Positions 48,918-64,000 of a DNA stretch of 64,000 nucleotides are shown in pieces. Location: the NCBI GenBank assembly GCA_947589325.1, contig CANQAM010000002.1, positions 39,415 through 103,414 of the forward strand, in the 5' to 3' direction. Within the stretch, counting starts at the first letter, position 1. Each line of letters begins with the position of its first letter. Below the pieces are notes generated by a model. That model was not told the DNA's origin, did not search any database, and saw nothing but the letters and a program-made list of their open reading frames with translations. A program made the translations under genes and the position numbers. This DNA is from an uncultured Bacteroidales bacterium (GTDB lineage: Bacteria; Bacteroidota; Bacteroidia; Bacteroidales; UBA11471).

Positions 48918-49037
48918 GACATAAAAAAATATCTATAAAGTTTGCGTATTTCGATAATTATCTATATTTTTGTCTCGTGAAATAAATAACACAGCCGTCA
49001 AAGATAAGAAAAAAAGACGAAAACAAAATAATACAAT
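48918..49037. promoter_or_regulatory. Divergent early control region (operators and promoters)
   Basis: Two direct TATCTATA copies (48930-37 and 48959-66, 29 bp apart). The second overlaps a TATTTTTG (TAnnTTTG-type) box at 48965-72, which faces the early operon. Confidence 0.55.
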
Positions 49038-49406
49038 ATGGAAAAGTATATAGCAGTAACGAAAGAATGTAGAGAGTTCTTACAAAAGGCATTCAATACG
49101 TCCAAGCCAACTGTATGGCGGGCTTTGACATTTGCCGACCGAGGCGGCGACAGCGAATTGGCGTGTAAGATTCGGCGGTTGGCACAATTGCGGGGCGGTA
49201 TGTTAATGGTGGTTGCCCATGCCATGGAAACCATACATGATGCCGACGACTTTATGCGTCAGTATTTCCCCAACGGCGTGATGCTGGAATGCGACAAAAA
49301 AACGGGGCGTATAGACATCATCAAAGACGGCAAGTCCGTAAAAAGTTATGCCGATGTAAGATTAGACTGTTTTTCTGCTATACAAGCGGAAGCACAAAAG
49401 TTATAG
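49038..49406 (+). CDS. First early gene: small putative DNA-binding protein (Ner/Cro position)
   Basis: 122 aa. HTH-like ECREFLQKAFNTSKPTVWRALTF. The assignment rests on its position opposite the repressor. Confidence 0.5.
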   Translation: MEKYIAVTKECREFLQKAFNTSKPTVWRALTFADRGGDSELACKIRRLAQLRGGMLMVVAHAMETIHDADDFMRQYFPNGVMLECDKKTGRIDIIKDGKSVKSYADVRLDCFSAIQAEAQKL

Positions 49407-49480
49407 CATGAGTAAAACCGTGAATACACAAACATTGAATCAAATCAATACGGACACGGGAGCAAGAAAACGACAACGCG

Positions 49481-51490
49481 ATGGAGTATTATAACAACAC
49501 ACTTTGTATAAGCCACGCGGAACTGACAGACGGTATTCTGTCTAAACCTAACATTTCGGCAATGGTGCGACGCGGGAAGTTAGAACAGGTGCGACGTGCC
49601 TGTTACGGTACCCCCGCGCTGTTTGCCGTTAATAGTTTACCATTGAAATATCGGACGAAGGTGTACCGCCGTTATCCGGATTTACAAGAAAGTGCCAATA
49701 GCAAGCCATTTATTGATACGATAATGCCTGACGGTAGAGCAATGCAGTTCTATGCCGATTATGTTTTGGCGGACGGTCGCCATCTGCCGACGGGAAAACA
49801 GGTGGAATATGCGAACAACTGCGCTATTATGAATGCGTTTCGCACGTGTATTGACAAGAGTAACAGCCAACGTATGCGGCAAAGCAAGTCTCGGCTGAAT
49901 AAAATGGCGTTTTGGGACAAAGCTGCCGGCGCATTGCCACGGCTTGCGGATAGGTTTCCTCATTCGCTACCCGAAAGCGCCCGCCGTCTCCAACGCAAGT
50001 TCAATGAATACCTACGCGACGGGTACAGTTGCTTTATCAGCAAAAAGTACCAAAACAACAATGCAGCAAAGGTGGATAATGACGAGAAGGAAAGTTTGCT
50101 GGCATTACTTATCGGGCACCATAATAACCTCGATAATGTACTGATAGCTAATCTATACAATACCAAAGCCAAAGAGTGTGGCTGGAAATCTATTACTCCC
50201 GGCGCCGTTGGCGTATGGCGTGAGAAATTGGACTTGACAACATCTGCCGGACGACTGGGAACCGCACAATTCCGTAACAAAAAGAGTATGCAGATAAAAC
50301 GCAGTCGCCCGACAGCACCTTTCTTGATGTGGACACTCGACGGCTGGGACGTGGAGCTATTGTATCAGAAAACTATGACTGACAAAAACGGACATTCAAT
50401 TACGAGCTATTGCAACCGTCTGACATTGGAGGTAGTATTAGACCCCTGTTGCAATTATCCGATAGGCTACGCAATAGGCACCCACGAGACACCCGATTTG
50501 ATTGCCGCAGCCTTGCGCGACGCCGCTAAACACAGCAAAGAACTCTTCGGCTCGATGTTGCGGGCGAATCAATTGCAATGCGACCATTACGCATTCAAGA
50601 CCATGATGCCCCTTTATAATGCGATGGCGGCAATACTGACGCCGGCTCAGGTCAAAAATGCCAAAGCAAAAGTCGTCGAACCGTACTTCGGTTACTTAAA
50701 CAAGACCTATTGCCGCCTATTCAATAACTGGTCGGGCTATGGTATTACAACCAATCCTGAAAAACAACCTAACAGCGAGGCATTGAATAATTTGCGGCGC
50801 CATTTTCCCGACGAAGACGGTCTGCGCCGACAGATAGAGAACATGATGCAATTAGAACGTCAGCAAAAAGTCTCTGAGTTCCGGGAAATGATGGACAACC
50901 TGCCGGCAGAGCGTCGTCTGCCATTGAGTCGAGAATCGTACCTGCTACATTTTGGTGCAGAAACGGGACACAAGAATGCCATTGAGGGCGGAGGTTTGCG
51001 ACCAACATTACTCGGGGTGAAACGTGATTACGATTGTTTTGACATACGTTTTCGTGAATATGCAGGCAAGCGATGGACGATAAAATACGACCCTGACGAT
51101 TTACACGAAATTCTTGCCGTCAGTGAGGACGGTACACTCAGATTCATGCTCACGGAAAAATATGTTCAGCCAATGGCTTTGGCTGAACGGAAAGATGGTG
51201 ATGCAGCAGAACTTGCCCGTGTGGTAACATTCAATCGACAACTGGAACAGCACATTATTGAACAGCGCGCATTGGCAAATGCCAAAGTAGAACATTTAAT
51301 CGGCAGCGGATCTGACAACATACTCAGTCGCTTGCTGATATGCAACAGCGACGGGCAGCACAAACTGCCCAAAGCAAAACGACGCCTCAGCGCAGCGGAT
51401 ATTAACAGTGTTGATGTGAATACCGTCGAAATTCCGTTGATGCCACAAGGCGCGCCAGCTTCGGATAAAGACGATTATTCCATTTTCTAA
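49481..51490 (+). CDS. MuA-like DDE transposase
   Basis: 669 aa. An rve-type core (WTLDGWDVELLY...CDHYAFKT...) and a Mu-transposase-like C-terminal region (RRLPLSRESYLLHFG...WTIKYDPDDLHEILAV). A MuB-like ATPase gene follows directly. Confidence 0.85.
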   Translation: MEYYNNTLCISHAELTDGILSKPNISAMVRRGKLEQVRRACYGTPALFAVNSLPLKYRTKVYRRYPDLQESANSKPFIDTIMPDGRAMQFYADYVLADGRHLPTGKQVEYANNCAIMNAFRTCIDKSNSQRMRQSKSRLNKMAFWDKAAGALPRLADRFPHSLPESARRLQRKFNEYLRDGYSCFISKKYQNNNAAKVDNDEKESLLALLIGHHNNLDNVLIANLYNTKAKECGWKSITPGAVGVWREKLDLTTSAGRLGTAQFRNKKSMQIKRSRPTAPFLMWTLDGWDVELLYQKTMTDKNGHSITSYCNRLTLEVVLDPCCNYPIGYAIGTHETPDLIAAALRDAAKHSKELFGSMLRANQLQCDHYAFKTMMPLYNAMAAILTPAQVKNAKAKVVEPYFGYLNKTYCRLFNNWSGYGITTNPEKQPNSEALNNLRRHFPDEDGLRRQIENMMQLERQQKVSEFREMMDNLPAERRLPLSRESYLLHFGAETGHKNAIEGGGLRPTLLGVKRDYDCFDIRFREYAGKRWTIKYDPDDLHEILAVSEDGTLRFMLTEKYVQPMALAERKDGDAAELARVVTFNRQLEQHIIEQRALANAKVEHLIGSGSDNILSRLLICNSDGQHKLPKAKRRLSAADINSVDVNTVEIPLMPQGAPASDKDDYSIF

Positions 51491-51500
51491 ACTATATAAT

Positions 51501-52361
51501 ATGTTACAGGAAGAAAAACAACAAATTGCTACAAGCCTCAAAGGCTACTGCGACAGGAAAGGAAGTCAAAATAAGGCTGCCAACAGTATGAACGGAGTCA
51601 GCTCTGCCACCATAAGCAAGGTACTGGCAGGCGACTGGGAAACAATTAGTGACGAAATGTGGCGCACGATAGCCGCCCAGACGGGACACGAGGCAAAGAC
51701 GTGGCACATCGCTGAAACACGTGCATATAGCCGCATGGGCTTCCTGCTCGACAATGCTCGTGAGGACAGCCTTGTATTGGCTGTTACCGGCGATGCCGGC
51801 TGTGGAAAAACGGAGGCGATAAAAAACTATGCTGCAACTCATCGCAATGTATATCATTTGTGCTGTTCTGAATACTGGAATCGTCGCACGTTCATGGGCA
51901 AACTGCTCAAATGTATGGGCATGGATTTTTCCGGCGCTACCGTATCAGACATGATGGACGATATCATCGACGCTCTGAAACGCAAGGAACTCCCGCTGGT
52001 CGTCCTTGACGAAGCAGACAAGTTGAGTGATCAAGTACTCTATTTCTTCATCAGCCTTTACAATCAGTTAGAGGGACATTGCGGCATCATTCTTTGCGCC
52101 ACAGATTTTCTGGAAAAACGCATAAAAAAGGGGTTGCGGATAAAACGTAAAGGCTATGAGGAAATATACAGCCGTATGGGGCGCAAGTTCGTGGAGTTGC
52201 AGGTCGTGAATACGGCGGATATAGCCGCCGTTTGCGTGGCAAACGGCATAACCGACACCAAAGAAATAAATCGGATAGCAGACGATTGCGAATGCGACCT
52301 GCGCCGCGTAAAACGCGCTATTTGGGCGATACAAAAGAACGGAGAACAGCATAACGATTAA
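51501..52361 (+). CDS. MuB-like AAA+ transposition ATPase
   Basis: N-terminal HTH-like segment, Walker A VTGDAGCGKTEAI and Walker B LVVLDEADKL. Confidence 0.85.
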   Translation: MLQEEKQQIATSLKGYCDRKGSQNKAANSMNGVSSATISKVLAGDWETISDEMWRTIAAQTGHEAKTWHIAETRAYSRMGFLLDNAREDSLVLAVTGDAGCGKTEAIKNYAATHRNVYHLCCSEYWNRRTFMGKLLKCMGMDFSGATVSDMMDDIIDALKRKELPLVVLDEADKLSDQVLYFFISLYNQLEGHCGIILCATDFLEKRIKKGLRIKRKGYEEIYSRMGRKFVELQVVNTADIAAVCVANGITDTKEINRIADDCECDLRRVKRAIWAIQKNGEQHND

Positions 52362-52400
52362 GACGATTAACGATGTACCTTATCTGATGGGAAAATAAAC

Positions 52401-53039
52401 ATGGGTCGAGCGATAAGCAATAAGAATGTACTGACAGCCAAATTTGAAGTAGCCGACTTCGAGGGGACTTTCCTTGCCAGCTTCGGGCGGCCGGAACTGC
52501 GAGGCGCATGGATGATCTACGGCGGCAGCGGTTGCGGTAAAACCACCTTTGTGTTACAGATCTGCAAGTACCTTACCCGCTTTCGCCGCGTGGCATACGA
52601 CAGTTTGGAACAAGGTTTAAGCCTCTCGCTAAAACGAGCATGGGAGCGGGTCGGCATGGCAGAAGTCGGTAATCGCATCATTCTGCTAAATAAAGAGGGT
52701 TTGAAAGATGTCCGCCTCCGGTTGGAAAAAAAGCGTAGCCCTGATGTCATTGTCATCGACAGCGTGCATTACTGGTTAGGACTTAAAATGTCGGATTATA
52801 TAAACCTACGTAAAGACTTTCCCGATAAGTTGTTCATTTTCGTATGCCATGAAAAACACGGGCTTCCTGATGGAAAAATAGCTGAAAAGATACGATACGA
52901 CAGCGATATAAAGGCTCGAGTAGAGGGTTACAAAGCATTTATAACCTCTCGGTACGAAATAGCCGAACTCGGCGAAGGTGGCGCGGACTTCGTGATATGG
53001 GAGCAAGGCGCACAGGAATATTGGATTGATAAAATGTAA
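52401..53039 (+). CDS. Small RecA-fold P-loop NTPase (AAA_24/Sak4-like?)
   Basis: 212 aa. Walker A YGGSGCGKTT and Walker B-like DVIVIDSV. Family assignment is uncertain. Confidence 0.6.
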   Translation: MGRAISNKNVLTAKFEVADFEGTFLASFGRPELRGAWMIYGGSGCGKTTFVLQICKYLTRFRRVAYDSLEQGLSLSLKRAWERVGMAEVGNRIILLNKEGLKDVRLRLEKKRSPDVIVIDSVHYWLGLKMSDYINLRKDFPDKLFIFVCHEKHGLPDGKIAEKIRYDSDIKARVEGYKAFITSRYEIAELGEGGADFVIWEQGAQEYWIDKM

Positions 53040-53045
53040 AACGAT

Positions 53046-53525
53046 ATGACAGAGAACAGGACGATGGACGCGATCCATCGAAACATCTTAAAGAAATTCC
53101 ACACCCTTTGCAGTGCATTGGGGCTTACCGAAGCAGAAAAGCGTGCCATAGTTGAAAGCTATGGTGTTGAGAGCAGCCGCGACATGGATACGCACGATTT
53201 GATAAACGTGTGCGGAAAACTTTCGGAACAGGCAAACGAAAAGGTGGGCGCAGGTGAGATGGACAAGTTGCGAAAACGGGTTATGGCTGCTATCGGAGCC
53301 TATCTGAAAGCCGTAGGCAGAGAGAGTAACGCCACCGTGATAAAAGGCATCGCTTGCCGGGCCACGGGGCATGCCGACTTCAACAAGATACCGCGCGAGC
53401 GGCTGCGTAATCTGGTGGCGGCGTTCAACAACAAGGTAAAAGACGCGCAGGCGGTGAATGAAATAGCCGACGGCCTGCTGTTGCAGTCTTATTTCGAATA
53501 TGGAAGACCACAAGCAAAAGCGTGA
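53046..53525 (+). CDS. GemA / Mu gp16-like protein (DUF1018)
   Basis: 159 aa. IHRNILKKFHTLCSALGLTEAEKRAIVESYGVESSRDMDTHDLINVCGKL is typical of the GemA family. Confidence 0.65.
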   Translation: MTENRTMDAIHRNILKKFHTLCSALGLTEAEKRAIVESYGVESSRDMDTHDLINVCGKLSEQANEKVGAGEMDKLRKRVMAAIGAYLKAVGRESNATVIKGIACRATGHADFNKIPRERLRNLVAAFNNKVKDAQAVNEIADGLLLQSYFEYGRPQAKA

Positions 53526-53528
53526 ACC

Positions 53529-53759
53529 ATGAGCAGCAAGAGAGACATTATAGAAATCGTGCCGCCGCCTTTTGTCGAAAAAAAGAACCTGACCGAATGT
53601 ATAACAAGCAATACTCATTTATGCAGCCACTGTCATGGTAACGGGTTCTTTTGGCAAAATGAAATGAATATGGCAGAGAAAAAGACCTGTCCGGTGTGCA
53701 ATGGCAGTGGTAAACTCCATGCCACGATCACCATCAAGTGGAAACCTGTAAAACAATAA
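53529..53759 (+). CDS. 76-aa protein with two DnaJ-type CxxCxGxG zinc-finger motifs
   Basis: CSHCHGNG and CPVCNGSG, separated by 18 residues. Confidence 0.65.
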   Translation: MSSKRDIIEIVPPPFVEKKNLTECITSNTHLCSHCHGNGFFWQNEMNMAEKKTCPVCNGSGKLHATITIKWKPVKQ

Positions 53760-53763
53760 GAAA

Positions 53764-53937
53764 ATGAGAAAAGACAAAATCGTAAAAGCGTTAAAGACGG
53801 TCGGTGCCATACCGTTCGTAGCAGTAGGAGTCGTACTCTTGTTTGCGGCTATCGTACTGAGAGCAGCCGGATATATGTTCCTGTTCGACACCGAGGCTGC
53901 GAAATATGAAATAAACCAAATCAAACCCAATAAATAA
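53764..53937 (+). CDS. 57-aa single-pass membrane protein
   Basis: Hand-translated: MRKDKIVKALKTVGAIPFVAVGVVLLFAAIVLRAAGYMFLFDTEAAKYEINQIKPNK. Tightly packed between neighbouring genes; below the ORF-track size cut-off. Confidence 0.5.
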   Translation: MRKDKIVKALKTVGAIPFVAVGVVLLFAAIVLRAAGYMFLFDTEAAKYEINQIKPNK

Positions 53938-53944
53938 CTTGTAT

Positions 53945-54598
53945 ATGGAAAACGTAACGATGACAGCGGAAGAACGCCGAGAGTTTGAAGCGTACCGCGC
54001 AGAAAAAGCAAAAAAAGAGGCGGCAGCACGCCGGAAACAGCAGCGTGCCGATTATGCCGGAATGGTAGATGACGAGCTGTGCACGACACTGCCGATTCTC
54101 AAAGAGTTGAGCGAGCGGATAAAGGTCGTGAAAGACACTGTTTTCGGGAATTTCGAAGCGATTTTGAAGATGAAGTCCGACGTGCTGGGCCTGACCAAAG
54201 AGATGCAGCACAGCCACACCTTTACGTCGAGCGACAGCCGCTTCCGCCTGACCCTCGGCGTGAACACCATCGACAGCTACCGCGATACGGTGGAAGATGG
54301 CATTGCCATGGTCAAGGCCTACATACAGAGCTTGGCCAAAGACGATACGAGCAAGGCGCTCGTAAACGCTGTTTTGCGGCTGTTGAGTCGCGATCAAAGC
54401 GGCAACATCAAAGCCAGCCGTGTGCTGCAACTTCGTAAAATGGCACAAGAAACAGGCGACGAACAGTTCATTGAGGGCGTGCAGATCATCGAGGAGAGTT
54501 ACCAGCCTACCGAGTCTAAAAAGTATATTCGTGCCGAGTACAAGAACGACAAAGGCGCGTGGGTCAATGTACCGCTCGGAATGACCGACGTGGATTGA
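53945..54598 (+). CDS. DUF3164-family protein (conserved in Mu-like early regions)
   Basis: ATG 53945 (the ORF track uses TTG 53939). ...GNIKASRVLQLRKMAQETGDEQFIEGVQIIEESYQPTESKKYIRAEYKN... matches my recollection of DUF3164. Confidence 0.65.
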   Translation: MENVTMTAEERREFEAYRAEKAKKEAAARRKQQRADYAGMVDDELCTTLPILKELSERIKVVKDTVFGNFEAILKMKSDVLGLTKEMQHSHTFTSSDSRFRLTLGVNTIDSYRDTVEDGIAMVKAYIQSLAKDDTSKALVNAVLRLLSRDQSGNIKASRVLQLRKMAQETGDEQFIEGVQIIEESYQPTESKKYIRAEYKNDKGAWVNVPLGMTDVD

Positions 54599-54678
54599 CA
54601 GCAGCGCCCGCTCCATCTGCAAGAAAGAAACGGGCGCAAGCCTTGTTGCCACAGGGTTTTGCAAAAATAAAAAAATAA

Positions 54679-54939
54679 ATGCAGATGGACAAGCGAAAAC
54701 ACCACGAAAGCACCATCGAGAGGGTCAGGATGGTAAGAGCCGTAACGGCAGAACATTACGAAAGCGGCAATCAGGCGCGGTGCTACAAAGCTGTATGGCG
54801 GCAGCATATTTTCCCGAAGTTCAAAATCTGCTATCGCACCTATCTGAGTTATTTGGGCATACCGACGCCTCCACCCGTGCCGAAACATTCCCCACAAGCA
54901 AGTCTATGGGACATCATGCAAGAAAAACCTGCTGAATAG
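54679..54939 (+). CDS. Last early-operon gene: small putative regulator (Mor position)
   Basis: 86 aa and basic. The assignment is positional only; its stop codon sits in the loop of the operon terminator. Confidence 0.4.
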   Translation: MQMDKRKHHESTIERVRMVRAVTAEHYESGNQARCYKAVWRQHIFPKFKICYRTYLSYLGIPTPPPVPKHSPQASLWDIMQEKPAE

Positions 54940-54958
54940 TTGCAGGTTTTTCTTTTTT
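54923..54958 (+). terminator. Intrinsic terminator ending the early operon
   Basis: Stem AAAAACCTGC (54923-32) / GCAGGTTTTT (54942-51), then CTTTTTT. Confidence 0.85.
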
Positions 54959-54961
54959 CTA

Positions 54962-54969
54962 TATATTTG
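54962..54969 (+). promoter_or_regulatory. Bacteroidetes -7 box (TATATTTG) for the moron gene
   Basis: Exact TAnnTTTG match 18 nt upstream of ATG 54987, immediately after the terminator. Confidence 0.5.
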
Positions 54970-54986
54970 GGGAAAATTGTACGATT

Positions 54987-55484
54987 ATGAAATCCATTAT
55001 TGTTTTGTCATTAATGCTATTTGCTGCGTCGTTTTCTTATGCCGACGATTATGCACGGTATTTTGAATGCGCGGACAAGAACGACGTTCAGGGAATGATT
55101 GATAGTTTATTATCCAGAGGCACACGCCAGTATAATCTCAAAGAAATTCGCAAGCGTAATGCAGACAGCGATCATATCATAGATTATATTTATCTCGGAG
55201 CCAATGCCGATTTTCCCGATAGCGTAAAACTGTTCGTCGAAGTCAATTTCTTTATGAAAGACGCAAATCCTGATATGAATATAACAGGAACACCGGTATA
55301 TAAAATAAATTCTATCGTCGGCGAATATCTGGACGTGTTACCTATATACCAGATTGTATCTCCGGAAACAACCGCAGAAAGCGCTGTTCGATACGGAGCC
55401 AATACAGATGTGCCCGATTCTCCTTATAAAGTCCGTTACAGTATTCGGAAATCATCGGCCGGTTGGAGATTCCGCCGTTTTTGA
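54987..55484 (+). CDS. Secreted protein of unknown function (prophage moron)
   Basis: 165 aa with signal peptide MKSIIVLSLMLFAASFSYA. It has its own promoter box and is AT-richer than its neighbours. It lies between convergent operons. Confidence 0.65.
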   Translation: MKSIIVLSLMLFAASFSYADDYARYFECADKNDVQGMIDSLLSRGTRQYNLKEIRKRNADSDHIIDYIYLGANADFPDSVKLFVEVNFFMKDANPDMNITGTPVYKINSIVGEYLDVLPIYQIVSPETTAESAVRYGANTDVPDSPYKVRYSIRKSSAGWRFRRF

Positions 55485-55496
55485 GGTACTCGGTTG

Positions 55497-55979
55497 CTAA
55501 TGGTTTAATGACAATTTAATACTGCCGGACTTCATGCTTGGAGGCATGGCAGTCGTGTCCTGTGCATTAGTGACGAATCGCTCGACGCTCTCCATCAGTT
55601 CGGCGTGGTCGTGATTGGTGGCCGATGTGGTCAGTTGGAAGCCGGCAAAGTTGTCGCCCCGCAACCCCTGCATGGCGGTGTCGATGCGTTCGATCAGGTC
55701 GAAAAATACCAATGCTTCCGGCATTTTCCGGTCGGTGTGTCCGTGCGTCGCCACGGCCCGCGTTACGATGTGCAGCCGCACGGCCACGTCGCCGCGGCGC
55801 GCTCCGTTGTTCTGTTGCCGCCACTCTATCTCCTCGAACTCGACAAATACGGCCGGCATCGGCCATACCGCGCCGCCGTTCAGTGCGGCGACATTGTTGT
55901 TCCACAGGTCGATGAATTGAATATCCGGCACGCACGCGGCGAGACGTGCGCAAATGGCTTGAAAGATTTGTTTTCTCAT
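55497..55979 (-). CDS. Virion structural protein, possibly head-tail joining / neck
   Basis: 160 aa. Last gene of the minus-strand late block, with a 4-nt ATGA overlap with the gpG-like gene. No motif recognised with confidence. Confidence 0.5.
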   Translation of the reverse strand: MRKQIFQAICARLAACVPDIQFIDLWNNNVAALNGGAVWPMPAVFVEFEEIEWRQQNNGARRGDVAVRLHIVTRAVATHGHTDRKMPEALVFFDLIERIDTAMQGLRGDNFAGFQLTTSATNHDHAELMESVERFVTNAQDTTAMPPSMKSGSIKLSLNH

Positions 55980-56434
55980 TTTCGTATGAATTTTGTAAGT
56001 TGCCCATTGAAGTCGGCGAGATTGTCCTCGATGATCCCTTTGATAATCTCCTGCGTACGTTTGCCGTCGCCCACGAACTGGCGCTTCGGCATGTTGAATT
56101 TGCGCGTGTGCGCCTTTACCGTGTACGGCTTCCCCTTTTTACTGGTGCGGGTATGTTGGCGCACAGACTTTGTCCCGCTGCCACCTTCATTATGAATAGC
56201 AGCGTATGGCACGGCCGAGGAGAAGCGCACGCCGTCGCCTCTTACTTCGGTCTTTATGCTGCGCCGCATCGTGCCCGTTACCATCAGCAGCGAGCCTTTG
56301 GGATATTTATAGGCCCGGGGCTTCCACTTGTCGGTAAAAAAGGCCTTGCGCTCGAAGTTGCGGTCGAACTCCTCGGAGAGTTCCACGCGCATGTCGTTCA
56401 ATATGTTTCTTTTCAGTTGTTCCCCGTCTATCAT
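55976..56434 (-). CDS. Mu gpG-like virion morphogenesis protein
   Basis: 152 aa. VPYAAIHNEGGSG and FNMPKRQFVG correspond to the YAAIHQFGG / MPARPFL motifs of the Mu G family. Confidence 0.75.
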   Translation of the reverse strand: MIDGEQLKRNILNDMRVELSEEFDRNFERKAFFTDKWKPRAYKYPKGSLLMVTGTMRRSIKTEVRGDGVRFSSAVPYAAIHNEGGSGTKSVRQHTRTSKKGKPYTVKAHTRKFNMPKRQFVGDGKRTQEIIKGIIEDNLADFNGQLTKFIRK

Positions 56435-56476
56435 TTTAATTATCGTTTAATTGTTGGTAATTCAAAAAAATAGTTG

Positions 56477-56484
56477 TAAATTTG
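56477..56484 (+). promoter_or_regulatory. Bacteroidetes -7 box (TAAATTTG) directly upstream of the 78-aa ORF
   Basis: Exact TAnnTTTG match ending 4 nt before ATG 56489, which implies a leaderless or near-leaderless transcript. Confidence 0.45.
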
Positions 56485-56488
56485 CGAT

Positions 56489-56725
56489 ATGGTAAAAATT
56501 ATAGATAAAATAGAAGAATGCCCTTATATGTGTGAGCACTGCAAGCACTTTAAGCAAGGACATACTTGTTTGGCTTTTGACAACATACCATTAAGCATTT
56601 TGCTTGATGCAGAAAGCCATACAACGGTATTGCCTGAACAAAAAGGCGCTTATGTCTTTGAGCCGGCAAAGCCCCGTGATACCATGCGTGTTTATGTGGA
56701 CGGTGCCGAAGAACCGGAATATTGA
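56489..56725 (+). CDS. 78-aa Cys/His-rich protein, antisense to the late operon
   Basis: MVKIIDKIEECPYMCEHCKHFKQGHTCLAF... It has its own promoter box and lies in AT-rich DNA. Its 3' end overlaps the MuF-protease stop by 34 nt (convergent). Confidence 0.55.
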   Translation: MVKIIDKIEECPYMCEHCKHFKQGHTCLAFDNIPLSILLDAESHTTVLPEQKGAYVFEPAKPRDTMRVYVDGAEEPEY

Positions 56726-58245
56726 TACTTTTCTGCATATAGTTTTTTAATTATAGTTCCAACCGCAACCGCAATAGGTCGCGGTTTTTCATTATTTAGA
56801 TACTCAGACCAAGCCTCAGCAATAAATTCAGCTGCGTTTTTATGTCCGTAGGAGGACAAGTTCTCCGTAATATGCGCTTTGCCTTTTGACATTTCCTCAT
56901 TATATATTTTGAGGAAATCCTTGTGAGTACGAAGTCCGATAAGTCGGTCAATTTCGTGCCCGAGTTCGTGGTCAAAAACAGCTTTCAATGTACCGGTTCC
57001 AAGTGGATGCCCTTTTGCCTGCACATCCTCTTCAAGCGACTTGTCTATTTTTTCACCTTTCCATGATGTATTGAAGCAAATGCCAGATAACCCCCAATCC
57101 TTAAATGCGCCATGAGAATAGGCATAAGTGTTTTTGCCTGCCCTTACTTTCATGCGGGTAATCCACCGGCTTACTTCTTTTTTCAACACTTCGTCCCCAA
57201 ATTTTGCATAATATGGGTCTGCCTTCAGTTCTGCAAGTTTGCGCTCGGAAAGTAGTTTAATGCGCCCAAGTATAGTGCCGACGAATAGTGTCTCTTTTTT
57301 TAATTCGGGGAAACATTGGAAATGCCTTTCCACACTCCTGAAAATGCTTTCTATTTGGTTCATGTTACTTTTATTAAATCCGGTCAAAGAGCATTTGACA
57401 CCCAATTTATCGCAAAAGAATTGTTCGGCTTCCTCGATTGTTTTTGGCGTCCATTCCGCAGGGGTATAGCCATTAATAGCTTGTTTCACCTGTTCGGGGT
57501 CCGGGCATTTGTAGTACGGGTGCTTTGGCGGAAAAAGTTGTAGCGACTTTCCGGCATTATAGCGAAATATAGACCCTTTTTTCCCGCCTGTACAGTCTTC
57601 GCCGAGCCGCATGGCGGTTTCGGGATTGGAAAGGGGGTATTTGTTTTTGCGCACCTGCACGGTCGTACAGCGGCAGTTCCATCCGTTGGGTGGGAGAAAC
57701 ATCGACCAGAACGGGTCGTCAGGCGGCAGGGTTATGCCGTTCAATGCGGCGTGTTCCTCGCGCACGCGGTCGTCGCCGGCCGTCCGGTATTGCAAGTCGT
57801 AACGGTCGCCGTCCTGCTCGAAGTCGTGCCATTTGGCTGCCATTTGCGACGCACCGACAGCATGGTTGTATTCCGCGTACAGGTAGTTATGGTTGTACTT
57901 GGCATTTATCTTCCGCACGTCGGTCAGGAAGTCGTCGAACGGTTTGATGTCGCCTTTGTCGGTCAGCAGCGACAGGCCCACTTCACGCAGGGCGTGGTAT
58001 GTTTTGAAGCCGGAAAAGACGAAAGCGTTATTTTCGAGCGCGTAGCGAATCGTCTCGGGAACTTCTGTCGGCAGTTTGCTGTTTATGGCAGTCTGCAATA
58101 TCCGTAAGGTCTCTTCGATGAGCGCTCTCGACTCGGAAGCTGCCAGTTGGTCGGGGGTGAAGCCCTGACTGTCGTAAACGGTCTGTGCCGCCTCCTCGAA
58201 GAGGGAGTCGTCGAAGTCGAACGGGCGGTCCTTATCCGCCAGCAA
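56692..58245 (-). CDS. MuF/SPP1-gp7-family head morphogenesis protein fused to a C-terminal anthrax-LF-like zinc metalloprotease domain; start uncertain
   Basis: The reading frame is open from 58992, but there is no in-frame ATG between 58944 and 57843. The first plausible independent start is TTG 58245; alternatively it is entered by a -1 shift from the portal frame at 58341-58335. MuF motifs: YRTAGDDRVREEHAALNG and PPNGWNCRCT. C-terminal motifs: HELGH (56956-70) and NLSSYGHKNAAEFIAEAW. Confidence 0.8.
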   Translation of the reverse strand: MLADKDRPFDFDDSLFEEAAQTVYDSQGFTPDQLAASESRALIEETLRILQTAINSKLPTEVPETIRYALENNAFVFSGFKTYHALREVGLSLLTDKGDIKPFDDFLTDVRKINAKYNHNYLYAEYNHAVGASQMAAKWHDFEQDGDRYDLQYRTAGDDRVREEHAALNGITLPPDDPFWSMFLPPNGWNCRCTTVQVRKNKYPLSNPETAMRLGEDCTGGKKGSIFRYNAGKSLQLFPPKHPYYKCPDPEQVKQAINGYTPAEWTPKTIEEAEQFFCDKLGVKCSLTGFNKSNMNQIESIFRSVERHFQCFPELKKETLFVGTILGRIKLLSERKLAELKADPYYAKFGDEVLKKEVSRWITRMKVRAGKNTYAYSHGAFKDWGLSGICFNTSWKGEKIDKSLEEDVQAKGHPLGTGTLKAVFDHELGHEIDRLIGLRTHKDFLKIYNEEMSKGKAHITENLSSYGHKNAAEFIAEAWSEYLNNEKPRPIAVAVGTIIKKLYAEKYQYSGSSAPST

Positions 58246-58306
58246 AAGCAGATTTTTGCCGTATAACGACTCGACGGCGGTATGGAACGCAGCGTATTTG
58301 TCGCGC

Positions 58307-58341
58307 AGCCCCTCGCAGTCGGAGGGGCTTAATCGAAAAAA
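58307..58341 (-). other. Candidate -1 programmed ribosomal frameshift signal (slippery heptamer, spacer, stem-loop)
   Basis: On the minus strand: U UUU UUC (58341-58335) in the portal frame, a 5-nt spacer GAUUA, and a stem AGCCCCUC (58329-22) / GAGGGGCU (58314-07) with a 7-nt loop. The -1 frame is the MuF frame. Confidence 0.55.
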
Positions 58342-59573
58342 GAGTCGGGTTGTGTTTTCGCCTGTCGCGTACCGGTGATGGGAATGTTGTACCGATCGAC
58401 GAAATACTGCGCGTCGATCTCGAAATATTCGAGCAAAAGGCGCTCCTCTTCCCGTAGTTCGGCCGGGGTGAAAGAGGCGGCATCGTCCCACCGGAACGCG
58501 AGGCCCCGCACGGGGAAGCCGTGCTGCACCATGAGCGGCAGGAGCCGGCCGTTGATGACGTTTGCCAGCATTTTGGCGTCGGCCTTGACGACATCGTCGA
58601 AAATTTCGAGGTGCGTCTCCGACTGCGAGAGCGACGAACCGCTGTCTATCGTCATTGTTTGCATCAGAATGCCTTTGGAGAGCTCGCTGTTGCACCGGTC
58701 CACACGTTTGTCGTACACGTTGTAGGCATCGCCCCTGCTGCTTTCCTTTATTTCGATGTCCGTTCCTTCTGGGAACAAAGCCCAGAAAGCAGCACCCATT
58801 TTGTCGAGCGCGGTTTCGATGCGCCGACGCTCGGCCTCGTCGGTCGTATTGGTACGGGCCACCCGCATGGGCGCCCCGAATATTTCGCCGAACATGTCCC
58901 AGAAAGCAAGCATGTTTTTTTTGCTGATGCAGGCAGGCGCGCATTTGAGGAGCAGGCCCAAATCTTTGGGCTTGCCCACTTCGACGCACCACAGGGCGAA
59001 ATCGCCCTCGCGGTACGGTATGCCTGTGCGCCAGTCGGCAGACGGGTCAGGGGTGATGACGCCGTATTCGGGGCATACGTGTTTGCGCGGGACGAGCTCG
59101 ACACCGTCGAAGCACATGCCGTTTTCGTCGGTTACGACATCGCCCAACTGGATCAGGCTGTGCCCCCAATAGCGGCTGTCCAAGGCAAGGTCGCAGAAAT
59201 CGCCAAACCACTCTTTTTGCAACAATTTCGTGGCCTCGGCGTTTTCTTTTCCGTCCTTGCCTACCAGCCGAAAATCTTTCTGCAACACTTTCCCTTTGCG
59301 CTGGCCGATGCAGCCTGTGAGATGCAGATCGAGCAAACAGTCTGCATAAATATCGTAGAGGCGTCCCCTGTTGGGAGTGTCCGCACTGATGGCGGCCTGA
59401 TGAGCCTGCCGCCACGTTGCAATATCCTTTTTGGTAAGGCTGTCGGTTTGCTGCAAGAGCTGCGCGGTCAGTTTTACCCCCTGCCGGCTTTTGGCGAAAC
59501 GCATCAGCCTGTCCATATCTGCCGCCGGAGTGTGGCGGTCGAAAAGCTGTTTTATACTGCTTATGAAGTCCAT
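58329..59573 (-). CDS. Portal protein (DUF935 / Mu gp29 family)
   Basis: 414 aa. It lies between the terminase and MuF genes. Overall resemblance to gp29-type portals (…WRTGIPYREGDFALW…MRVARTNTTDEAERRRIE…). Confidence 0.8.
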   Translation of the reverse strand: MDFISSIKQLFDRHTPAADMDRLMRFAKSRQGVKLTAQLLQQTDSLTKKDIATWRQAHQAAISADTPNRGRLYDIYADCLLDLHLTGCIGQRKGKVLQKDFRLVGKDGKENAEATKLLQKEWFGDFCDLALDSRYWGHSLIQLGDVVTDENGMCFDGVELVPRKHVCPEYGVITPDPSADWRTGIPYREGDFALWCVEVGKPKDLGLLLKCAPACISKKNMLAFWDMFGEIFGAPMRVARTNTTDEAERRRIETALDKMGAAFWALFPEGTDIEIKESSRGDAYNVYDKRVDRCNSELSKGILMQTMTIDSGSSLSQSETHLEIFDDVVKADAKMLANVINGRLLPLMVQHGFPVRGLAFRWDDAASFTPAELREEERLLLEYFEIDAQYFVDRYNIPITGTRQAKTQPDSFFD

Positions 59574-59637
59574 TTAATTGTTGGTTAAAGAACGTTTAAC
59601 TTCGTATGAAATGCCGGCTGCAGCCGGTAGTCTGGCA

Positions 59638-60057
59638 TTAATAATCGTATTTGTTGGGCGGCATCGAGCCGTAGCGCACGGGGTTGTGCGCGTCCGTTTC
59701 GCCGCCCTCGCCCGTATAGGTAGGCAGGTCGGGCGATGCCTTGGAGCTTTGCACGTCGCGCAGCCACTGAATGGCGTCCTTGTAGAGGCATTCACGCCGC
59801 TCGTGTCCCATATTCTGCGGCAGCCGGTGGATCATCAGCCAAAGGGTGATGTTTACCGCACATTGCACGAGAAACGGATTCCGCTCGTGACCCTGTGCAG
59901 CAAAAGCCGCCTGCATATCGTACCGGTGGCGGGTATAGCTGCATATCTGTTCTATTGCCGCCTGTTCTGCGGCGAGCCGCTCGGAGGTGTTTGCACACAG
60001 CTGCTCCAGCTCGAACTCATCGCATACGCTTTTATAGTCTTCTTCTGTCAAAAACAT
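59638..60057 (-). CDS. DUF1320 / Mu gp36-like head protein
   Basis: 139 aa. MFLTEEDYKSV...IEQICSYTRHRYD...NPFLVQCAVNITLWLMIHRL pattern. Confidence 0.6.
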   Translation of the reverse strand: MFLTEEDYKSVCDEFELEQLCANTSERLAAEQAAIEQICSYTRHRYDMQAAFAAQGHERNPFLVQCAVNITLWLMIHRLPQNMGHERRECLYKDAIQWLRDVQSSKASPDLPTYTGEGGETDAHNPVRYGSMPPNKYDY

Positions 60058-60305
60058 GGTCGTCGGTTTTTAGGGTATGCTACATATATCGCGCGTTTCA
60101 TGGCCTCTGCGGAGGTGAAACTTTTTACAAAACGGCGCTGCCGTATCAGATTTTTTATTCCCTGCATGGAGACCGCGACAGGTTTGCCGTCGAATACGAT
60201 CACCAAGTACTTTTTTCCGTACCGTGCGGCGTGGCGCGTCGCTTTTTTCGTGGCGCGTCGCAGCCGCCACTCAAACACCAGTGTCTTAAATAACTTTTTT
60301 ACCAT
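60048..60305 (-). CDS. Hypothetical small basic phage protein
   Basis: ATG 60305 (MVKKLFKTLVFEWRLRRATKK...). It overlaps the TerL stop by 7 nt and the next gene's start by 10 nt. Confidence 0.5.
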   Translation of the reverse strand: MVKKLFKTLVFEWRLRRATKKATRHAARYGKKYLVIVFDGKPVAVSMQGIKNLIRQRRFVKSFTSAEAMKRAIYVAYPKNRRPCF

Positions 60306-61843
60306 AATATGTTTTTTGCATTGTTCCGCCTGCCAAAAGACGGAGTGAAACTGCTGATACGGGTATCGCGCTGCAGGTACCATATCGCGCCCTCGTCGGC
60401 ATCGGGCGCATCATCGTGGCCGCGCATACCCCGTTCAAATGCGAGTGTCTGTTCTATCCCCGCCTGCATGTCGGGGTCGTCTTTTTCCGTCTCGTTGTAG
60501 GTTACGAAACCGCGCTCCCACAGGGGGCTTATCGCCTCGATACGCTGAAACTTGTCGGGCTTCTTGCGTTTGTCCGCACTGATTGGCAGCTGGTAGCCGC
60601 GCAAATCGCCTTCGCGTCGGAACTCGTCGAGGATGGTGTCTTGCATGAAATTGGCCTCCATATACCATTTGATGGCGATACCCTGCGACTGGCTCCATTC
60701 GTAGAGGTCGTAAAGCCAGCGCACCATTTCGGCGACGCTGCACTGGCGCACAAAGGCTTTGATATGCCACAGTTGCGAACCGGCTTTGCCCCACAACTTG
60801 GCGGCCTTGTAGTCGTTTTTCGTCGTGCCCTTGAAAGACGGGTCGATATACAATACCAGTTCGTCAAACTTTTTCAAATCGGGCATTTTGCCCCACTTTA
60901 TCCAGTCGTTGCGGAACACGGCTCCCTCGGTTATCGGGTTGTTCATATACTCCTTTTGGAAAGAACGATAGCCCTGAAACTGCTCGATGGCTCTCACCTC
61001 TTTGGGTGTCCATTTGGCCGCCCACGACACATTGCCGTTCTTGTCCCAGACATTCACCTGCGAAACGTGCACGCCGTTTGTGGCGGCTATATTGGCCAGC
61101 ACGCTGTTTTTGGATATCAGGTTGCCGACCATGATGAAACGTCCGCGTCCGCCGTCGAGCGCCCCGAAAAGCGCCTCTTTAACCCAGTTTGTCAAGCGGG
61201 TAACGCGGGCGGGGCTTTCGCACAGCTCATCGTCGTCGAGGTCGTCGATGACGATGTAGTCGGGGCGGTGCGAGCGGTAGCGCAGACCGCGCGGCGACTG
61301 CCCGCGGCCTCGTGCGAAGAATGCCGTGCCGTCTTTTGTTACGAACTCGCCCTCCTCCCACGAACCGCCGTTGTACTGCTGCCCGAAGTCGTGGATATAC
61401 CGCTGGTTGAACTGCAACTCCGCCTGAATGTCGGAGAGCAGCGTGTTGGCGTTGTCCTCGCTTTTCCCCACCAGCACCATGACGTTGAGCTGTTTGTTCT
61501 GCTGGCATTTGAGCCATAGCGGAATGAATATGTCCATGTGCGTGGACTTTGCAGCTCCTCGGTGCCATTTGAATACGGCTCTCAGGTTACGATTTTGGAG
61601 AATCTTGCTCGCCGCTTTGATGTGAAACGGCGCGCAGGGCGTCCGCATGCCCGTTTCCGGATTTACGGTGTAGTGCGGAAAATAATAATCGACAAAAGCG
61701 GCATAATCGGCCCGCACGTGTTTAATGCGCAAGGCTTTGTCCTGCAAAGTCTCCGCCGTATTTACGGCCGTAGCGGCCTGTACGGTTTCGCAATGTTTCT
61801 GCCACCTTTCGATGGCGTCTCTCAATATCGCTTTCTGTATCAT
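60299..61843 (-). CDS. Terminase large subunit
   Basis: 514 aa. ATPase Walker A-like WHRGAAKST and Walker B YIVIDDLDDDE. C-terminal nuclease-like half. Confidence 0.88.
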   Translation of the reverse strand: MIQKAILRDAIERWQKHCETVQAATAVNTAETLQDKALRIKHVRADYAAFVDYYFPHYTVNPETGMRTPCAPFHIKAASKILQNRNLRAVFKWHRGAAKSTHMDIFIPLWLKCQQNKQLNVMVLVGKSEDNANTLLSDIQAELQFNQRYIHDFGQQYNGGSWEEGEFVTKDGTAFFARGRGQSPRGLRYRSHRPDYIVIDDLDDDELCESPARVTRLTNWVKEALFGALDGGRGRFIMVGNLISKNSVLANIAATNGVHVSQVNVWDKNGNVSWAAKWTPKEVRAIEQFQGYRSFQKEYMNNPITEGAVFRNDWIKWGKMPDLKKFDELVLYIDPSFKGTTKNDYKAAKLWGKAGSQLWHIKAFVRQCSVAEMVRWLYDLYEWSQSQGIAIKWYMEANFMQDTILDEFRREGDLRGYQLPISADKRKKPDKFQRIEAISPLWERGFVTYNETEKDDPDMQAGIEQTLAFERGMRGHDDAPDADEGAIWYLQRDTRISSFTPSFGRRNNAKNILW

Positions 61844-61869
61844 GGCGATTGTTTATTGTTTGCCCTCGT

Positions 61870-62343
61870 TTATTGAAATTTGTTTTGCAGCAGTTCGTTG
61901 ATATAGAGGTCGTGATACCGGTTAATGGTTTTCAGCAGCTCCGGCGTGATTTTGTCGTCGAAAGACATGCGGTATTGCATCCATTTGCTGAATGCCATAA
62001 ATACCTCTATCACGTCTACGATGGACGCCTTTTTGTCGAGCCGCTCGATGGTCGATGACAGTTTTGCCAGTTTGTCGCCTAATCCGGCCATTGCCTCCGG
62101 ATCATCGCTGTCGTTCACCTGTTCTATCAGCCGGTCGATGGTGTGCAGCAGTTTGTTTACCAGTTCGGGGCGGGTGATGTTTGCCGCGGCGCGCTGTTCC
62201 TGCCAGCCGTTATCGGCGGCCCACTTGGTGATCGTTACCGCCGACACTCCTACTTTTTCGGCGATTACCTTCTGGGCTTCGCCCTGCATAAACAGCAGGC
62301 GGGCATATTCACGCTTTTCTTCGAGTTCTTTTTTTGTTGCCAT
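61870..62343 (-). CDS. Terminase small subunit-like DNA-binding protein
   Basis: 157 aa. N-terminal HTH (ARLLFMQGEAQKVIAEKVGVSAVTITKWAADNGW). It lies directly upstream of TerL. Confidence 0.65.
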   Translation of the reverse strand: MATKKELEEKREYARLLFMQGEAQKVIAEKVGVSAVTITKWAADNGWQEQRAAANITRPELVNKLLHTIDRLIEQVNDSDDPEAMAGLGDKLAKLSSTIERLDKKASIVDVIEVFMAFSKWMQYRMSFDDKITPELLKTINRYHDLYINELLQNKFQ

Positions 62344-62488
62344 TCATATCGTTTATGTTTTCGGTACCGCTACGCGCGTTTTCCGATGTGCAAAATTGCG
62401 TCCGATATCTTATTATAAAAAAAAGATATGCAAAGTTTTACACTCTTTTTGCCGTCGTGGTCGGCAATAGAGATATTTGCATCGCAAT

Positions 62489-62561
62489 CGCAGGGTGGAG
62501 CAGCTGGCAGCTCGCAAGGTTCATTCCCTTGAGGTCGGCGGTTCGAATCCGTCCCCTGCTA
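62489..62561 (+). tRNA. Phage-encoded tRNA with CAU anticodon (Met/Ile2-type), atypical
   Basis: Hand fold: CGCAGGG-TG-GAGC-AGCTGGCA-GCTC-G-CAAGG-TTCATTC-CCTTG-AGGTC-GGCGG-TTCGAAT-CCGTC-CCCTGCT-A. Oddities are a C1:U72 mismatch, U at position 37 and no encoded CCA. Confidence 0.7.
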
Positions 62562-62576
62562 CAAACAAATTGACGA

Positions 62577-63560
62577 ATGGCAAAAGATGTAATCATTAGC
62601 ACCAGCGGCCTGAACTGTTATGGTGGCCGCGTGCTGACCTCGGGCATCGACCTGACACAGTTCCAGAAAAACCCGCTGCTGTTGTGGATGCACCGCCGTA
62701 GCTTCGAGCGTGATGCAATGCCTATCGGGCGCATCGACAACCTGCGTATCGACGGCGACCGCCTTATCGGCACGCCTGTTTTCGACCAGAACGACGAGTT
62801 TGCCAAAAAAATAGAAAGCAAGTGGGAAAACGGTTTCCTGCGTATGGCTTCAGCGGGACTCTCTATCGTAGAAATAAGCAATGCACCCGAATACCTTTTA
62901 CAAGGGCAAACCCGTGCGACAATCGTACGCAGCCGATTGGAAGAGGTCAGTATCGTCGATATGGGCGGCAATGACGACGCCTTACAATTGTATGACCGCA
63001 GCGGCAAGATGTTGAAGCTCGCCGCTGGCGTGGACAACCCTGTATTGCCGCTGCTTTCGCTCGAAAAGGATTCCGAGGGGACAGACCCTCGCAACGTGGA
63101 AAATCAAACCAATCAAAATCCAAAAAAGATGAATGAAGAAATTTTGAAGCTGCTCGGACTGCCGGACTCGGCTACCGAACAGGAAGCGGTAGGCGCACTT
63201 CGCCTGCTGAAAGAAAACGCCGAGAAAGGGGAAACACTTCGCCTTGCCGGCATTACGGCTGTTGTGGACGCTGCCATTGCCGAAAAACGTATCACGGCGG
63301 ACAAAAAGGAGCATTTCGTGAACCTCGGTAAGACGGCCGGCCTCGACGCGCTGCGCGAGACCCTTTCACTGATGCACCCCGTCAGCAAGCCCACAGAGGT
63401 AATCCGCCAGAAAGACGCGCCGCGTGCCGATGAACCGAAGACCTACGCCAAATTATCTGAGGTGCCGGCCAAACAGGTAGAAGCGCTGCGTATGGAAAAA
63501 CCGCAAGAGTACGAGCGGCTTTACAAAGCCGAATACGGCATTGAAATCCCGAAGAAATAA
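62577..63560 (+). CDS. Prohead protease with C-terminal scaffold region (Mu gpI-like)
   Basis: 327 aa. N-terminal protease-like half (NPLLLWMHR...MPIGRIDNLRIDGDRLIG...MASAGLSIVE). C-terminal helical scaffold-like half (EEILKLLGLPDSATEQEAVGALRLLKENAEK...). Confidence 0.75.
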   Translation: MAKDVIISTSGLNCYGGRVLTSGIDLTQFQKNPLLLWMHRRSFERDAMPIGRIDNLRIDGDRLIGTPVFDQNDEFAKKIESKWENGFLRMASAGLSIVEISNAPEYLLQGQTRATIVRSRLEEVSIVDMGGNDDALQLYDRSGKMLKLAAGVDNPVLPLLSLEKDSEGTDPRNVENQTNQNPKKMNEEILKLLGLPDSATEQEAVGALRLLKENAEKGETLRLAGITAVVDAAIAEKRITADKKEHFVNLGKTAGLDALRETLSLMHPVSKPTEVIRQKDAPRADEPKTYAKLSEVPAKQVEALRMEKPQEYERLYKAEYGIEIPKK

Positions 63561-63579
63561 CAAAAAAAACAACAAAACA

Positions 63580-64000
63580 ATGAAACTTATCAAGTATCTT
63601 TTTATTGCCGTTTTGGCATTGGTAGCGTCCGTAGCACTCAACAGTGCAATGGGTGCAACCATCGCGTATGTATCAGGATTTTCTCCTGTGGCTGGCGTTG
63701 TGGCTGGCAACGTCATCGGATTGTTCACCGGTGCGGTACTGCCGCACGGTGTAGCGTGTGAAACCGTCTTTAAGGAGATTTGGACGGGTGAAATGATCAA
63801 GGCATTCCGCACGGCAGCCGAAAGCCTCGGATGGTTCGACCGTATCAAAAGTTATGACCAGTACGTCGAAAACGACGTTATCCATTTTACGGAATTAGGC
63901 GGCGACCCAGAGGTTTTAGTAAATAATAAGACTTATCCCTTGAACATCAAAACTCTCAACGATGCCGACAAACCTATAACACTCGATTATTACGACACAG
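63580..64000 (+). CDS. Major capsid protein candidate, N-terminal 140 codons; continues beyond the window
   Basis: Not in the ORF track (no stop). ATG 63580 gives MKLIKYLFIAVLALVASVALNSAMGATIAYVSG...ETVFKEIWTGEMIKAFRTAAESLGWFDRIKSYDQYVENDVIHFTELGGDPEVLVNNKTYP... The call is mainly from its position after the protease/scaffold gene. Confidence 0.55.
   Translation, partial: MKLIKYLFIAVLALVASVALNSAMGATIAYVSGFSPVAGVVAGNVIGLFTGAVLPHGVACETVFKEIWTGEMIKAFRTAAESLGWFDRIKSYDQYVENDVIHFTELGGDPEVLVNNKTYPLNIKTLNDADKPITLDYYDT

Follow-up and report, generated by a model that had tools for sequence, protein, structure and literature searches.

What role does a small protein play when its gene points against the late genes of a prophage, overlaps the stop of one of them and carries a promoter element of its own? 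In this study, we explored such a gene, an open reading frame (ORF) of 78 amino acids (aa) here called ORF78, in a 64,000-nucleotide (nt) stretch of DNA from an uncultured Bacteroidales bacterium (the window). ORF78 lies on the plus strand between two minus-strand genes, one for a MuF protein with a C-terminal zincin metallopeptidase tail (stop at 56692), the other for a gpG-like protein (start at 56434). The original prediction, made from the letters of the window, had placed a self-promoted Cys-rich ORF in this 257-nt gap, overlapping the MuF gene by 34 nt; the ORF, its N-terminus, the gap and the overlap are all present. Our findings favor, with moderate confidence, a polymorphic toxin/immunity cassette in which ORF78 would serve the MuF zincin tail as its immunity-type counterpart. 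We prefer this reading because of the swapping of whole cassettes among related MuF genes and because of a tandem orphan islet in a bacterial chromosome, both of them comparative lines of evidence.

Linkage of ORF78 to the zincin tail

From the literature on MuF-family proteins, their C-terminal tails enter the capsid with MuF and are presumed to accompany the DNA on injection. The MuF protein of the window matches phrog_324 (E=7e-107) as well as Phage_Mu_F (table 1), and its tail gives a weak match to ATLF (E=8.7e-5) over the HELGH motif. In an alignment of MuF zincin tails (A2) the signature HELGHE...EFIAEAWSEY is invariant, and a profile of these tails matches anthrax lethal factor (2l0r) with E=0.009. 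Metallopeptidases make up 20% of MuF toxins (Jamet 2017, PMC5576092). Tail and small gene share a base composition: over positions 56400-57500, which span ORF78 and the C-terminal third of MuF, GC (guanine plus cytosine) content is 30-44%, against 53-64% on both flanks, so that the AT-rich character previously ascribed to both is borne out. Among the loci found via ORF78, 44 of 48 have one layout, gpG (-), ORF78 (+), MuF (-) and portal (-), and the MuF of this clade carries both the N-domain and the zincin tail; the ORF78 region of the window itself is 99% identical to that of a Bacteroidales metagenome-assembled genome (L013). Across 21 loci, ORF78 identity follows that of the MuF C-domain closely (rho 0.87), that of the portal (rho 0.60) and gpG (rho 0.58) moderately, and that of the MuF N-domain not at all (rho -0.04), with a recombination break between the two MuF domains. 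Since ORF78 identity tracks the C-domain rather than the N-domain, and since low GC is common to both halves, these comparisons indicate that ORF78 and the zincin tail recombine as one cassette, which is what the original prediction had proposed.

Co-occurrence was surveyed with the MuF N-domain instead of ORF78 as the anchor, which gave 80 loci at 41-75% N-domain identity. The members of the CCCH family, as we term ORF78 and its relatives after their putative zinc ligands, were present in seven of seven zincin-tailed loci, always convergent, and in none of the 73 with other tails. Likewise, among loci found via the tail, none that had an identity of 44% or more and a sufficient length of sequence downstream was without the gene. 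The association with ATLF-type MuF tails that had been proposed as a check is thus strict in the lineage of the window, although, as discussed below, some more distant zincin-tailed MuFs are without the gene.

What replaces ORF78 in the other loci is equally informative. The same MuF N-domain (41-75% identity) bears zincin, Gln_amidase or other tails, and in the closest siblings the tail is Gln_amidase (PF15644, "papain fold toxin 1"). In the place of ORF78, siblings have convergent small ORFs of 72-93 aa that are unrelated to it and fall into at least three families, all without a Pfam match (L201-L238; e.g. L227 6525-6773, L203 6519-6770 and L215 6537-6779). Their overlap with the MuF stop is 4-63 nt long, and a TAnnTTTG motif stands 4-7 nt 5' of the ATG; two of the families accompany Gln_amidase tails and one a different HExxH tail. 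Because the sibling cassettes are built alike, we take the convergent, self-promoted layout as a general design: judged by these sequences, it is not special to ORF78 but standard for every MuF tail cassette in the lineage.

The only clear non-phage context of ORF78 homologues is found in three loci, L007-L009, where no MuF or portal gene lies nearby. This islet belongs to a bacterial chromosome (GCA_054267855.1, contig JAZLST010000020.1; L007 5732-7119, also in L008 and L009) and adjoins an ECF (extracytoplasmic function) sigma factor gene and a restriction-modification gene. It comprises, in order, an 83-aa homologue of a small ORF linked to Gln_amidase tails (family A; 36-51% identity, E down to 4e-29), the ORF78 homologue and a 260-aa secreted protein. 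Each of the two small genes has its own -7 promoter box, that of the 83-aa gene 6 nt 5' of its ATG. Orphans standing in tandem are a hallmark of immunity genes, and the islet is probably an orphan immunity array against phage MuF toxins. The 260-aa neighbor was considered as a free-standing protease tail and rejected, being unrelated; it is also unrelated to a 165-aa secreted ORF of the window described below.

Coding evidence and expression signals

ORF78 is a genuine gene, and purifying selection acts on it. It is intact in 40 of 40 distinct coding sequences of the lineage, whereas the other five frames have stops in 28-40 of these, and its ratio of nonsynonymous to synonymous substitution (dN/dS) lies at ~0.13-0.23, synonymous differences being almost saturated (median proportion, pS, 0.76). 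Upstream, the claimed -7 box is present 4 nt 5' of the ATG (TAAATTTG) and conforms to TAnnTTTG, the sigma-ABfr -7 consensus (PMC7366714). TAnnTTTG is not rare in the window, with 44 matches against 32 expected; the evidence for a promoter lies in the conserved position of the motif and not in its rarity. The box precedes the ORF78 homologue in 45 of 47 distinct upstream regions while the remaining spacer diverges; close relatives have it 3-8 nt from the ATG, diverged homologues 16-22 nt. Near position -33 only TTG/GTTG-like matches are seen (ATTGTTGG, 56450-56457), and certain Bacteroidetes are noted to have a weak -33 element or none (PMC7366714). From the placement of the -7 box, the ORF78 transcript is predicted to be leaderless, starting at or beside the AUG, in line with the promoter arrangement first suggested for this gene. 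Such a start is unusual but has precedent, given that 5' untranslated regions of <10 nt make up only ~3.7% of those in B. thetaiotaomicron (PMC7366714).

Downstream of ORF78, a hairpin followed by a T run is embedded in the MuF codons for NEKPRPIAVAVG and recurs in ~30 of 40 distinct loci. The synonymous choices in its stem are frozen: Pro is encoded by CCG in 37 of 37 sequences (background 24%), Ala by GCG in 35 of 37 (background 19%) and Arg by CGA or CGG in all 37 (25% background). The hairpin with its T run is a probable intrinsic terminator of the ORF78 transcript. With a predicted promoter of its own and this probable terminator, ORF78 could therefore be produced without transcription of the late operon, for example in the lysogen.

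In the mechanism that we propose, the MuF protein of the window would carry its zincin tail into the capsid, from which the tail would be injected with the DNA. In the lysogen, the host sigma-ABfr-type -7 box would drive an mRNA that begins at or beside the AUG, and the hairpin and T run within the MuF coding sequence would end it. The resulting protein would then most probably bind and neutralize its cognate metallopeptidase tail, like the immunity protein of a polymorphic toxin system. In this way it might shield the lysogen from tail made by leaky expression, or from tails that sibling virions inject.

Two further observations concern the gene itself. A homologue at a contig end (L022 7500-7976) is interrupted in frame behind its first six codons, lacks a -7 box and may be a decaying copy. 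ORF78 was also considered as an invertible segment, a possibility that we rejected: the inverted repeats are only weak (12-14 nt) and the ~90 loci of the lineage all have the same orientation.

The CCCH family and the competing readings

A protein search with ORF78 retrieved 15 clusters, 71-79 aa long and with 54-91% identity, all of them without a name or a Pfam domain. Fourteen residues are invariant in these clusters (M1, D6, Y13, C15, C18, K19, G24, C27, A29, F30, I33, P34, E42 and H44). The metal-type Cys motif originally read from the N-terminus has to be redrawn accordingly: C11 varies, and the conserved ligand set is C15-x2-C18-x8-C27-x16-H44, four positions that are also invariant or nearly so in the wider family alignments (A1, A3, A4 and A7). 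Their invariance suggests that one zinc ion on C15/C18/C27/H44 probably holds the fold. The family is large, with 1,097 clusters at 90% identity in profile searches and, in an exhaustive HMMER search, 9,191 clusters at 50% identity (E<=0.001), of which 2,037 are at E<=1e-10. Its core motif reads CxxC[KR]H[YF]...C[KR]AF..IP.EI....H, after which comes P[YF]PGDNGIxFEP or QKGxYVFEP. The median net charge is -5 and the family is mostly acidic, which makes nucleic-acid binding unlikely. An AlphaFold2 model of ORF78 built from 16 sequences was poor (predicted local distance difference test, pLDDT, 71) and gave no fold matches; a later model with a 102-sequence alignment reached pLDDT 91.5. With this second model, Foldseek found nothing in PDB at E<=0.001 and, in BFVD, only uncharacterized members of the CCCH family itself, and a profile search against PDB sequences returned no solved zinc-finger or zinc-ribbon relative (best E 0.23). 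Searches of Pfam, PHROGs and NCBIfam with ORF78 assigned it to no family, the sole match being a chance one to PA14 (E=0.042), and PHROGs gave no match at E<=1. Distant co-directional members (E=1.4e-9 and 6.5e-4), and fusion proteins too, match phrog_33375, a family of unassigned function that is linked to ORF78 only via profile alignments A3 and A7. The CCCH domain also occurs as two to four tandem copies within single proteins, the multi-copy or fused set being P0121, P0123, P0143 and P0169. P0123 consists of MuF, a JAB-like HNHP..S..D motif and two C-terminal CCCH copies, whereas in P0143 and P0169 an HExxH domain is followed in cis by two CCCH copies; in the larger CCCH-domain proteins of L131 and L188 no informative partner domain was found.

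Outside the clade of the window, the CCCH gene is co-directional with MuF and directly past it, usually with a 1- or 4-nt stop overlap. Such an arrangement is found after three distant zincin-tailed MuFs (L102, L105 and L108), in a Leptospiraceae prophage, in a phage with an SPP1-type portal and in ~70 of 80 further viral contigs; a classic Mu-like phage has the order portal, MuF (390 aa, without HExxH), CCCH gene, gpG, Mu protease and gpT. A Pfam scan of 48 upstream partners identified Phage_Mu_F in 37 and Phage_min_cap2 in 2. In some cases the partner is a portal protein whose extension contains HExxH. In 41 non-redundant pairs, which were chosen via the YPGDNGI motif and cover one subfamily only, the tails fall into at least eight unrelated clusters, with HExxH in 20. 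A more isolated member, JENST_114, is encoded by Brevibacillus phage Jenst (KT151955, 126 kb; L199 3118-4701), two genes past JENST_116, which is annotated as a "low copy number virion structural protein" and has a HEIGH zincin motif without a MuF core; both genes sit among DNA-metabolism genes.

Several of these observations, and some others, weigh against an immunity role for ORF78. Classical immunity proteins are toxin-specific and fast diverging. Tails recognized among the 48 partners include ADPrib_exo_Tox (9), ART (7), zeta toxin (1), restriction-endonuclease-like (1) and ATLF (1), and in the 41 non-redundant pairs the identity of the small proteins is practically the same where the tails are of one type (0.555) as where they differ (0.545), so that no partition by tail is seen. 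Thus, outside the lineage of the window the CCCH family is not specific to a toxin type, and a strictly protease-specific reading is weakened because the family also follows MuFs without a protease tail. Conversely, zincin-tailed MuFs at 26-35% identity, from AT-rich phages (L097-L101 and L103), have no CCCH gene. The cis fusions are unusual for immunity, yet fit a zymogen-style inhibitor. Finally, virion-borne zincin tails could serve in self-processing and not in toxicity (Iyer 2017). The first hypothesis of the original prediction, an immunity protein or inhibitor of the protease, is the best supported, through cassette swapping and the orphan islet, but has to accommodate a family that elsewhere stands beside unrelated tails.

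A broad distribution of this kind would be expected if the CCCH protein were a generic accessory, acting as adaptor, chaperone or safety catch, that binds a feature common to long MuF or portal proteins irrespective of their enzyme and aids cargo loading, holding or release; the zincin linkage in the lineage of the window would then be mere adjacency. The family does follow MuF or portal proteins with at least eight unrelated extension classes, independently of which its members are similar to each other, and 58 of 58 partner MuFs extend at least 170 aa (median 280) beyond the MuF core, whereas 952 of 1,515 MuFs are short (Jamet 2017, PMC5576092). Translational coupling through the 1- or 4-nt start/stop overlap is the norm outside Bacteroidales, the PGDNGIxFEP or QKGxYVFEP stretch is highly conserved, and fusions to MuF or peptidase proteins exist. 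This explanation loses ground through the N-domain-anchored survey and the orphan islet: 73 long MuFs of the same lineage with other tails are without the gene and have other small ORFs instead, orphan copies persist in a chromosome without MuF and beside another cassette-type small ORF, and an assembly factor needs no independent host-type promoter convergent to the late operon. A generic accessory therefore accounts for the distribution across phages, but not for the absence from all 73 loci, the replacement by other small ORFs or the islet, and we regard it as unlikely. A bolder version, which we likewise view as doubtful, makes the CCCH mini-protein the universal, effector-independent partner of cargo-bearing MuF and portal proteins, a new-fold, zinc-stabilized safety catch or loading adaptor. 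If it were true, many small ORFs past MuF toxins that are assumed to be diverse immunity genes would be one family of at least 9,000 clusters, and Bacteroidales phages would have rewired the CCCH gene, and with it their true immunity genes, so that each forms a convergent, leaderless unit that is active in the lysogen.

Two other explanations leave the tail aside. ORF78 might be an independent moron or anti-defense gene that acts on the host or on a defense system and is lodged in the F-G gap; its own promoter, probable terminator and low GC, the copies outside prophages and a nearby plus-strand ORF resembling a classic moron (54987-55484) are in keeping with this. Yet the gene co-occurs strictly with one tail type (7/7 vs 0/73) and recombines together with it, the bond between the family and MuF extends to very distant phages, the gap holds ORF78 only, with no partner regulator gene, and no named function was matched in Pfam, PHROGs or NCBIfam. 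We consider this quite improbable. The second hypothesis of the original prediction, an analogy with anti-CRISPR loci, finds no support either. In Pseudomonas phages of the JBD30 type, such loci consist of one or more variable small genes followed by an aca-type helix-turn-helix regulator, between G and the protease/scaffold gene; here the site is the F-G gap, ORF78 stands alone without an aca-like gene, and it is conserved with the tail. Alternatively, the plus-strand transcript could be the main product, as antisense RNA or through transcriptional interference on the MuF 3' end and gpG in the lysogen, with the protein secondary. The convergent overlapping layout with its conserved promoter, the hairpin kept inside the MuF coding sequence and the like arrangement of all sibling cassettes would suit such a role, but the strong purifying selection on the protein, with its invariant Cys and His residues, does not, and where other phages encode the same protein co-directionally no antisense effect is possible. 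As the principal function this is very improbable; a regulatory side-effect of the transcript on top of the protein role is possible. Overall, we retain the toxin/immunity cassette as the preferred reading of the locus.

The locus in its prophage and among known systems

The features of the locus are collected in table 1. The MuF reading frame has no in-frame ATG past the portal stop; the nearest conventional start is a TTG at 58245, which may be the one used. Directly past the portal stop, at 58308-58328 (-), lies a perfect hairpin of 7 bp, rich in GC (GCCCCTC-N7-GAGGGGC) and without a T run.

Table 1. Features of the ORF78 locus, in positions of the window
Feature	Position	Strand	Remarks
ORF78 (78 aa, acidic, CCCH zinc-type site)	56489..56725	+	Proposed immunity-type partner of the zincin tail of MuF
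-7 box (TAnnTTTG, sigma-ABfr type)	56477..56484	+	Ends 4 nt 5' of the ATG
Span with putative zinc ligands	56531..56620	+	C15 56531-33, C18 56540-42, C27 56567-69, H44 56618-20; alignment columns invariant or >=90% conserved
Overlap of convergent ORF78 and MuF 3' ends	56692..56725		34 nt; codes for weakly conserved tails of both proteins
Terminator-like hairpin AACCGC-N8-GCGGTT, then T run	56767..56796	+	41 nt past the ORF78 stop
MuF C-terminal zincin metallopeptidase tail	56692..57471	-	ATLF match; HELGH 56956-56970, then EFIAEAWSEY; low GC
MuF N-terminal (capsid-targeting) domain	57472..58326	-	Phage_Mu_F E=3.8e-15; start uncertain
gpG-like virion morphogenesis gene	55976..56434	-	Phage_tail_S E=2.8e-13 and synteny; downstream of the cassette in the late operon
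Mu-type portal gene	58329..59573	-	Portal_Mu in syntenic loci; directly upstream of MuF

The prophage layout is apparent across ~48200-64000 of the window. A repressor-like gene (48210-48917, -) is followed by plus-strand early genes, which include an ORF of transposase size (669 aa) and one with syntenic homologues that match AAA_22. The late genes run on the minus strand from past the window end down to 55497, so that early and late arms converge; the portal-MuF-gpG-p160 block is the end of the late arm, and the capsid and tail genes are outside the window. At the exact early(+)/late(-) junction lies the 165-aa ORF 54987-55484 (+), which resembles a classic moron: it has a signal-peptide-like N-terminus and a GC content of 37-45%, and TATATTTG ends 17 nt 5' of its ATG (54962-55484). 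A 76-aa early ORF (53529-53759, +) contains CSHCHGNG...CPVCNGSG, which resembles the DnaJ-type CXXCXGXG zinc finger, and its syntenic counterpart in L195 gives a faint DnaJ_CXXCXGXG match. Searches of GenBank phages returned no DNA near-identical to positions 55400-59600, no tblastn match to the MuF tail, no match better than E=0.07 to ORF78 and none to a Mu-type family member used as query.

MuF-fused enzymes are widespread and barely studied phage-delivered effectors in gut bacteria; to our knowledge, only Apk2 and Bxa have been characterized experimentally. Bacteroidales MuF toxins carry ADP-ribosyltransferase, glutamine-deaminase and alarmone-synthetase tails; Bxa is neutralized by adjacent immunity proteins, a further small ORF at its locus (BACSTE_RS09440) is non-neutralizing, and a glutamine-deaminase MuF with its small ORF has been modeled as a toxin-immunity complex (PMC11699363). 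The window resembles such modules (Jamet 2017, PMC5576092; Bxa, BAH and Bsi, PMC11699363) in that a portal gene is followed by a MuF N-domain with a swappable enzyme tail, and in that a small ORF abuts the toxin 3' end and changes with the tail. Its sibling loci carry the Gln_amidase tail described in PMC11699363, and metallopeptidase tails, as in the window, are a listed class of MuF toxins (PMC5576092). The differences are several. The tail of the window is a zincin peptidase, a class without a characterized partner, and its partner is a CCCH zinc-type mini-protein without a solved-fold relative, from a family not limited to one toxin type. This partner is convergent, overlaps the toxin stop and has its own predicted leaderless-type promoter and a probable embedded terminator, whereas PMC5576092 and PMC11699363 give no small-ORF strand.

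The closest cultured counterpart is Flavobacterium phage vB_FspM_lotta8-2 (MN812204), which has the same series of a Mu-type portal (gp027), MuF (gp028), CCCH (gp029), gpG-like (gp030) and p160-like genes. Its gp028 has a zincin tail with HEFGH...EFIAEAFTEY and gp029 is a 66-aa family member, annotated only as a hypothetical protein; unlike ORF78, it is co-directional with MuF, with a 23-nt end overlap, and so belongs to the late operon. Phage morons are, like ORF78, autonomous transcription units of differing GC between two conserved late genes, but ORF78 is swapped with the 3' part of a neighboring structural gene and overlaps it. The islet of L007-L009 recalls the orphan immunity gene arrays known in Bacteroidales as polyimmunity loci and acquired interbacterial defense islands, as far as these are cited in PMC11699363: two different cassette-type small genes stand in tandem, with their own -7 boxes and no toxin gene nearby. 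It differs in being the only such islet seen, with two genes and a putative protective function.

The kind of system, a MuF polymorphic toxin with an immunity gene, is thus already known. What the locus supplies is a candidate partner for the metallopeptidase class, drawn from a large family that is still unannotated and whose fold is predicted with confidence. The lineage design suggests that the immunity gene is expressed in the lysogen, apart from the late genes, and toxin/immunity pairs of Bacteroidales prophages could be sought by a simple rule, a convergent overlapping small gene with a -7 box placed for leaderless expression, while the orphan islet may be used for finding further immunity genes. 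There is a paradox in one conserved small family being paired with unrelated effector tails, which sets specific immunity against generic cargo handling. Set beside the known modules, new elements are the uncharacterized CCCH family as metallopeptidase-class partner, the convergent, overlapping leaderless-type unit with a probable embedded terminator as a lineage-wide design, the orphan islet, and the presence of one conserved small family beside unrelated tails elsewhere.

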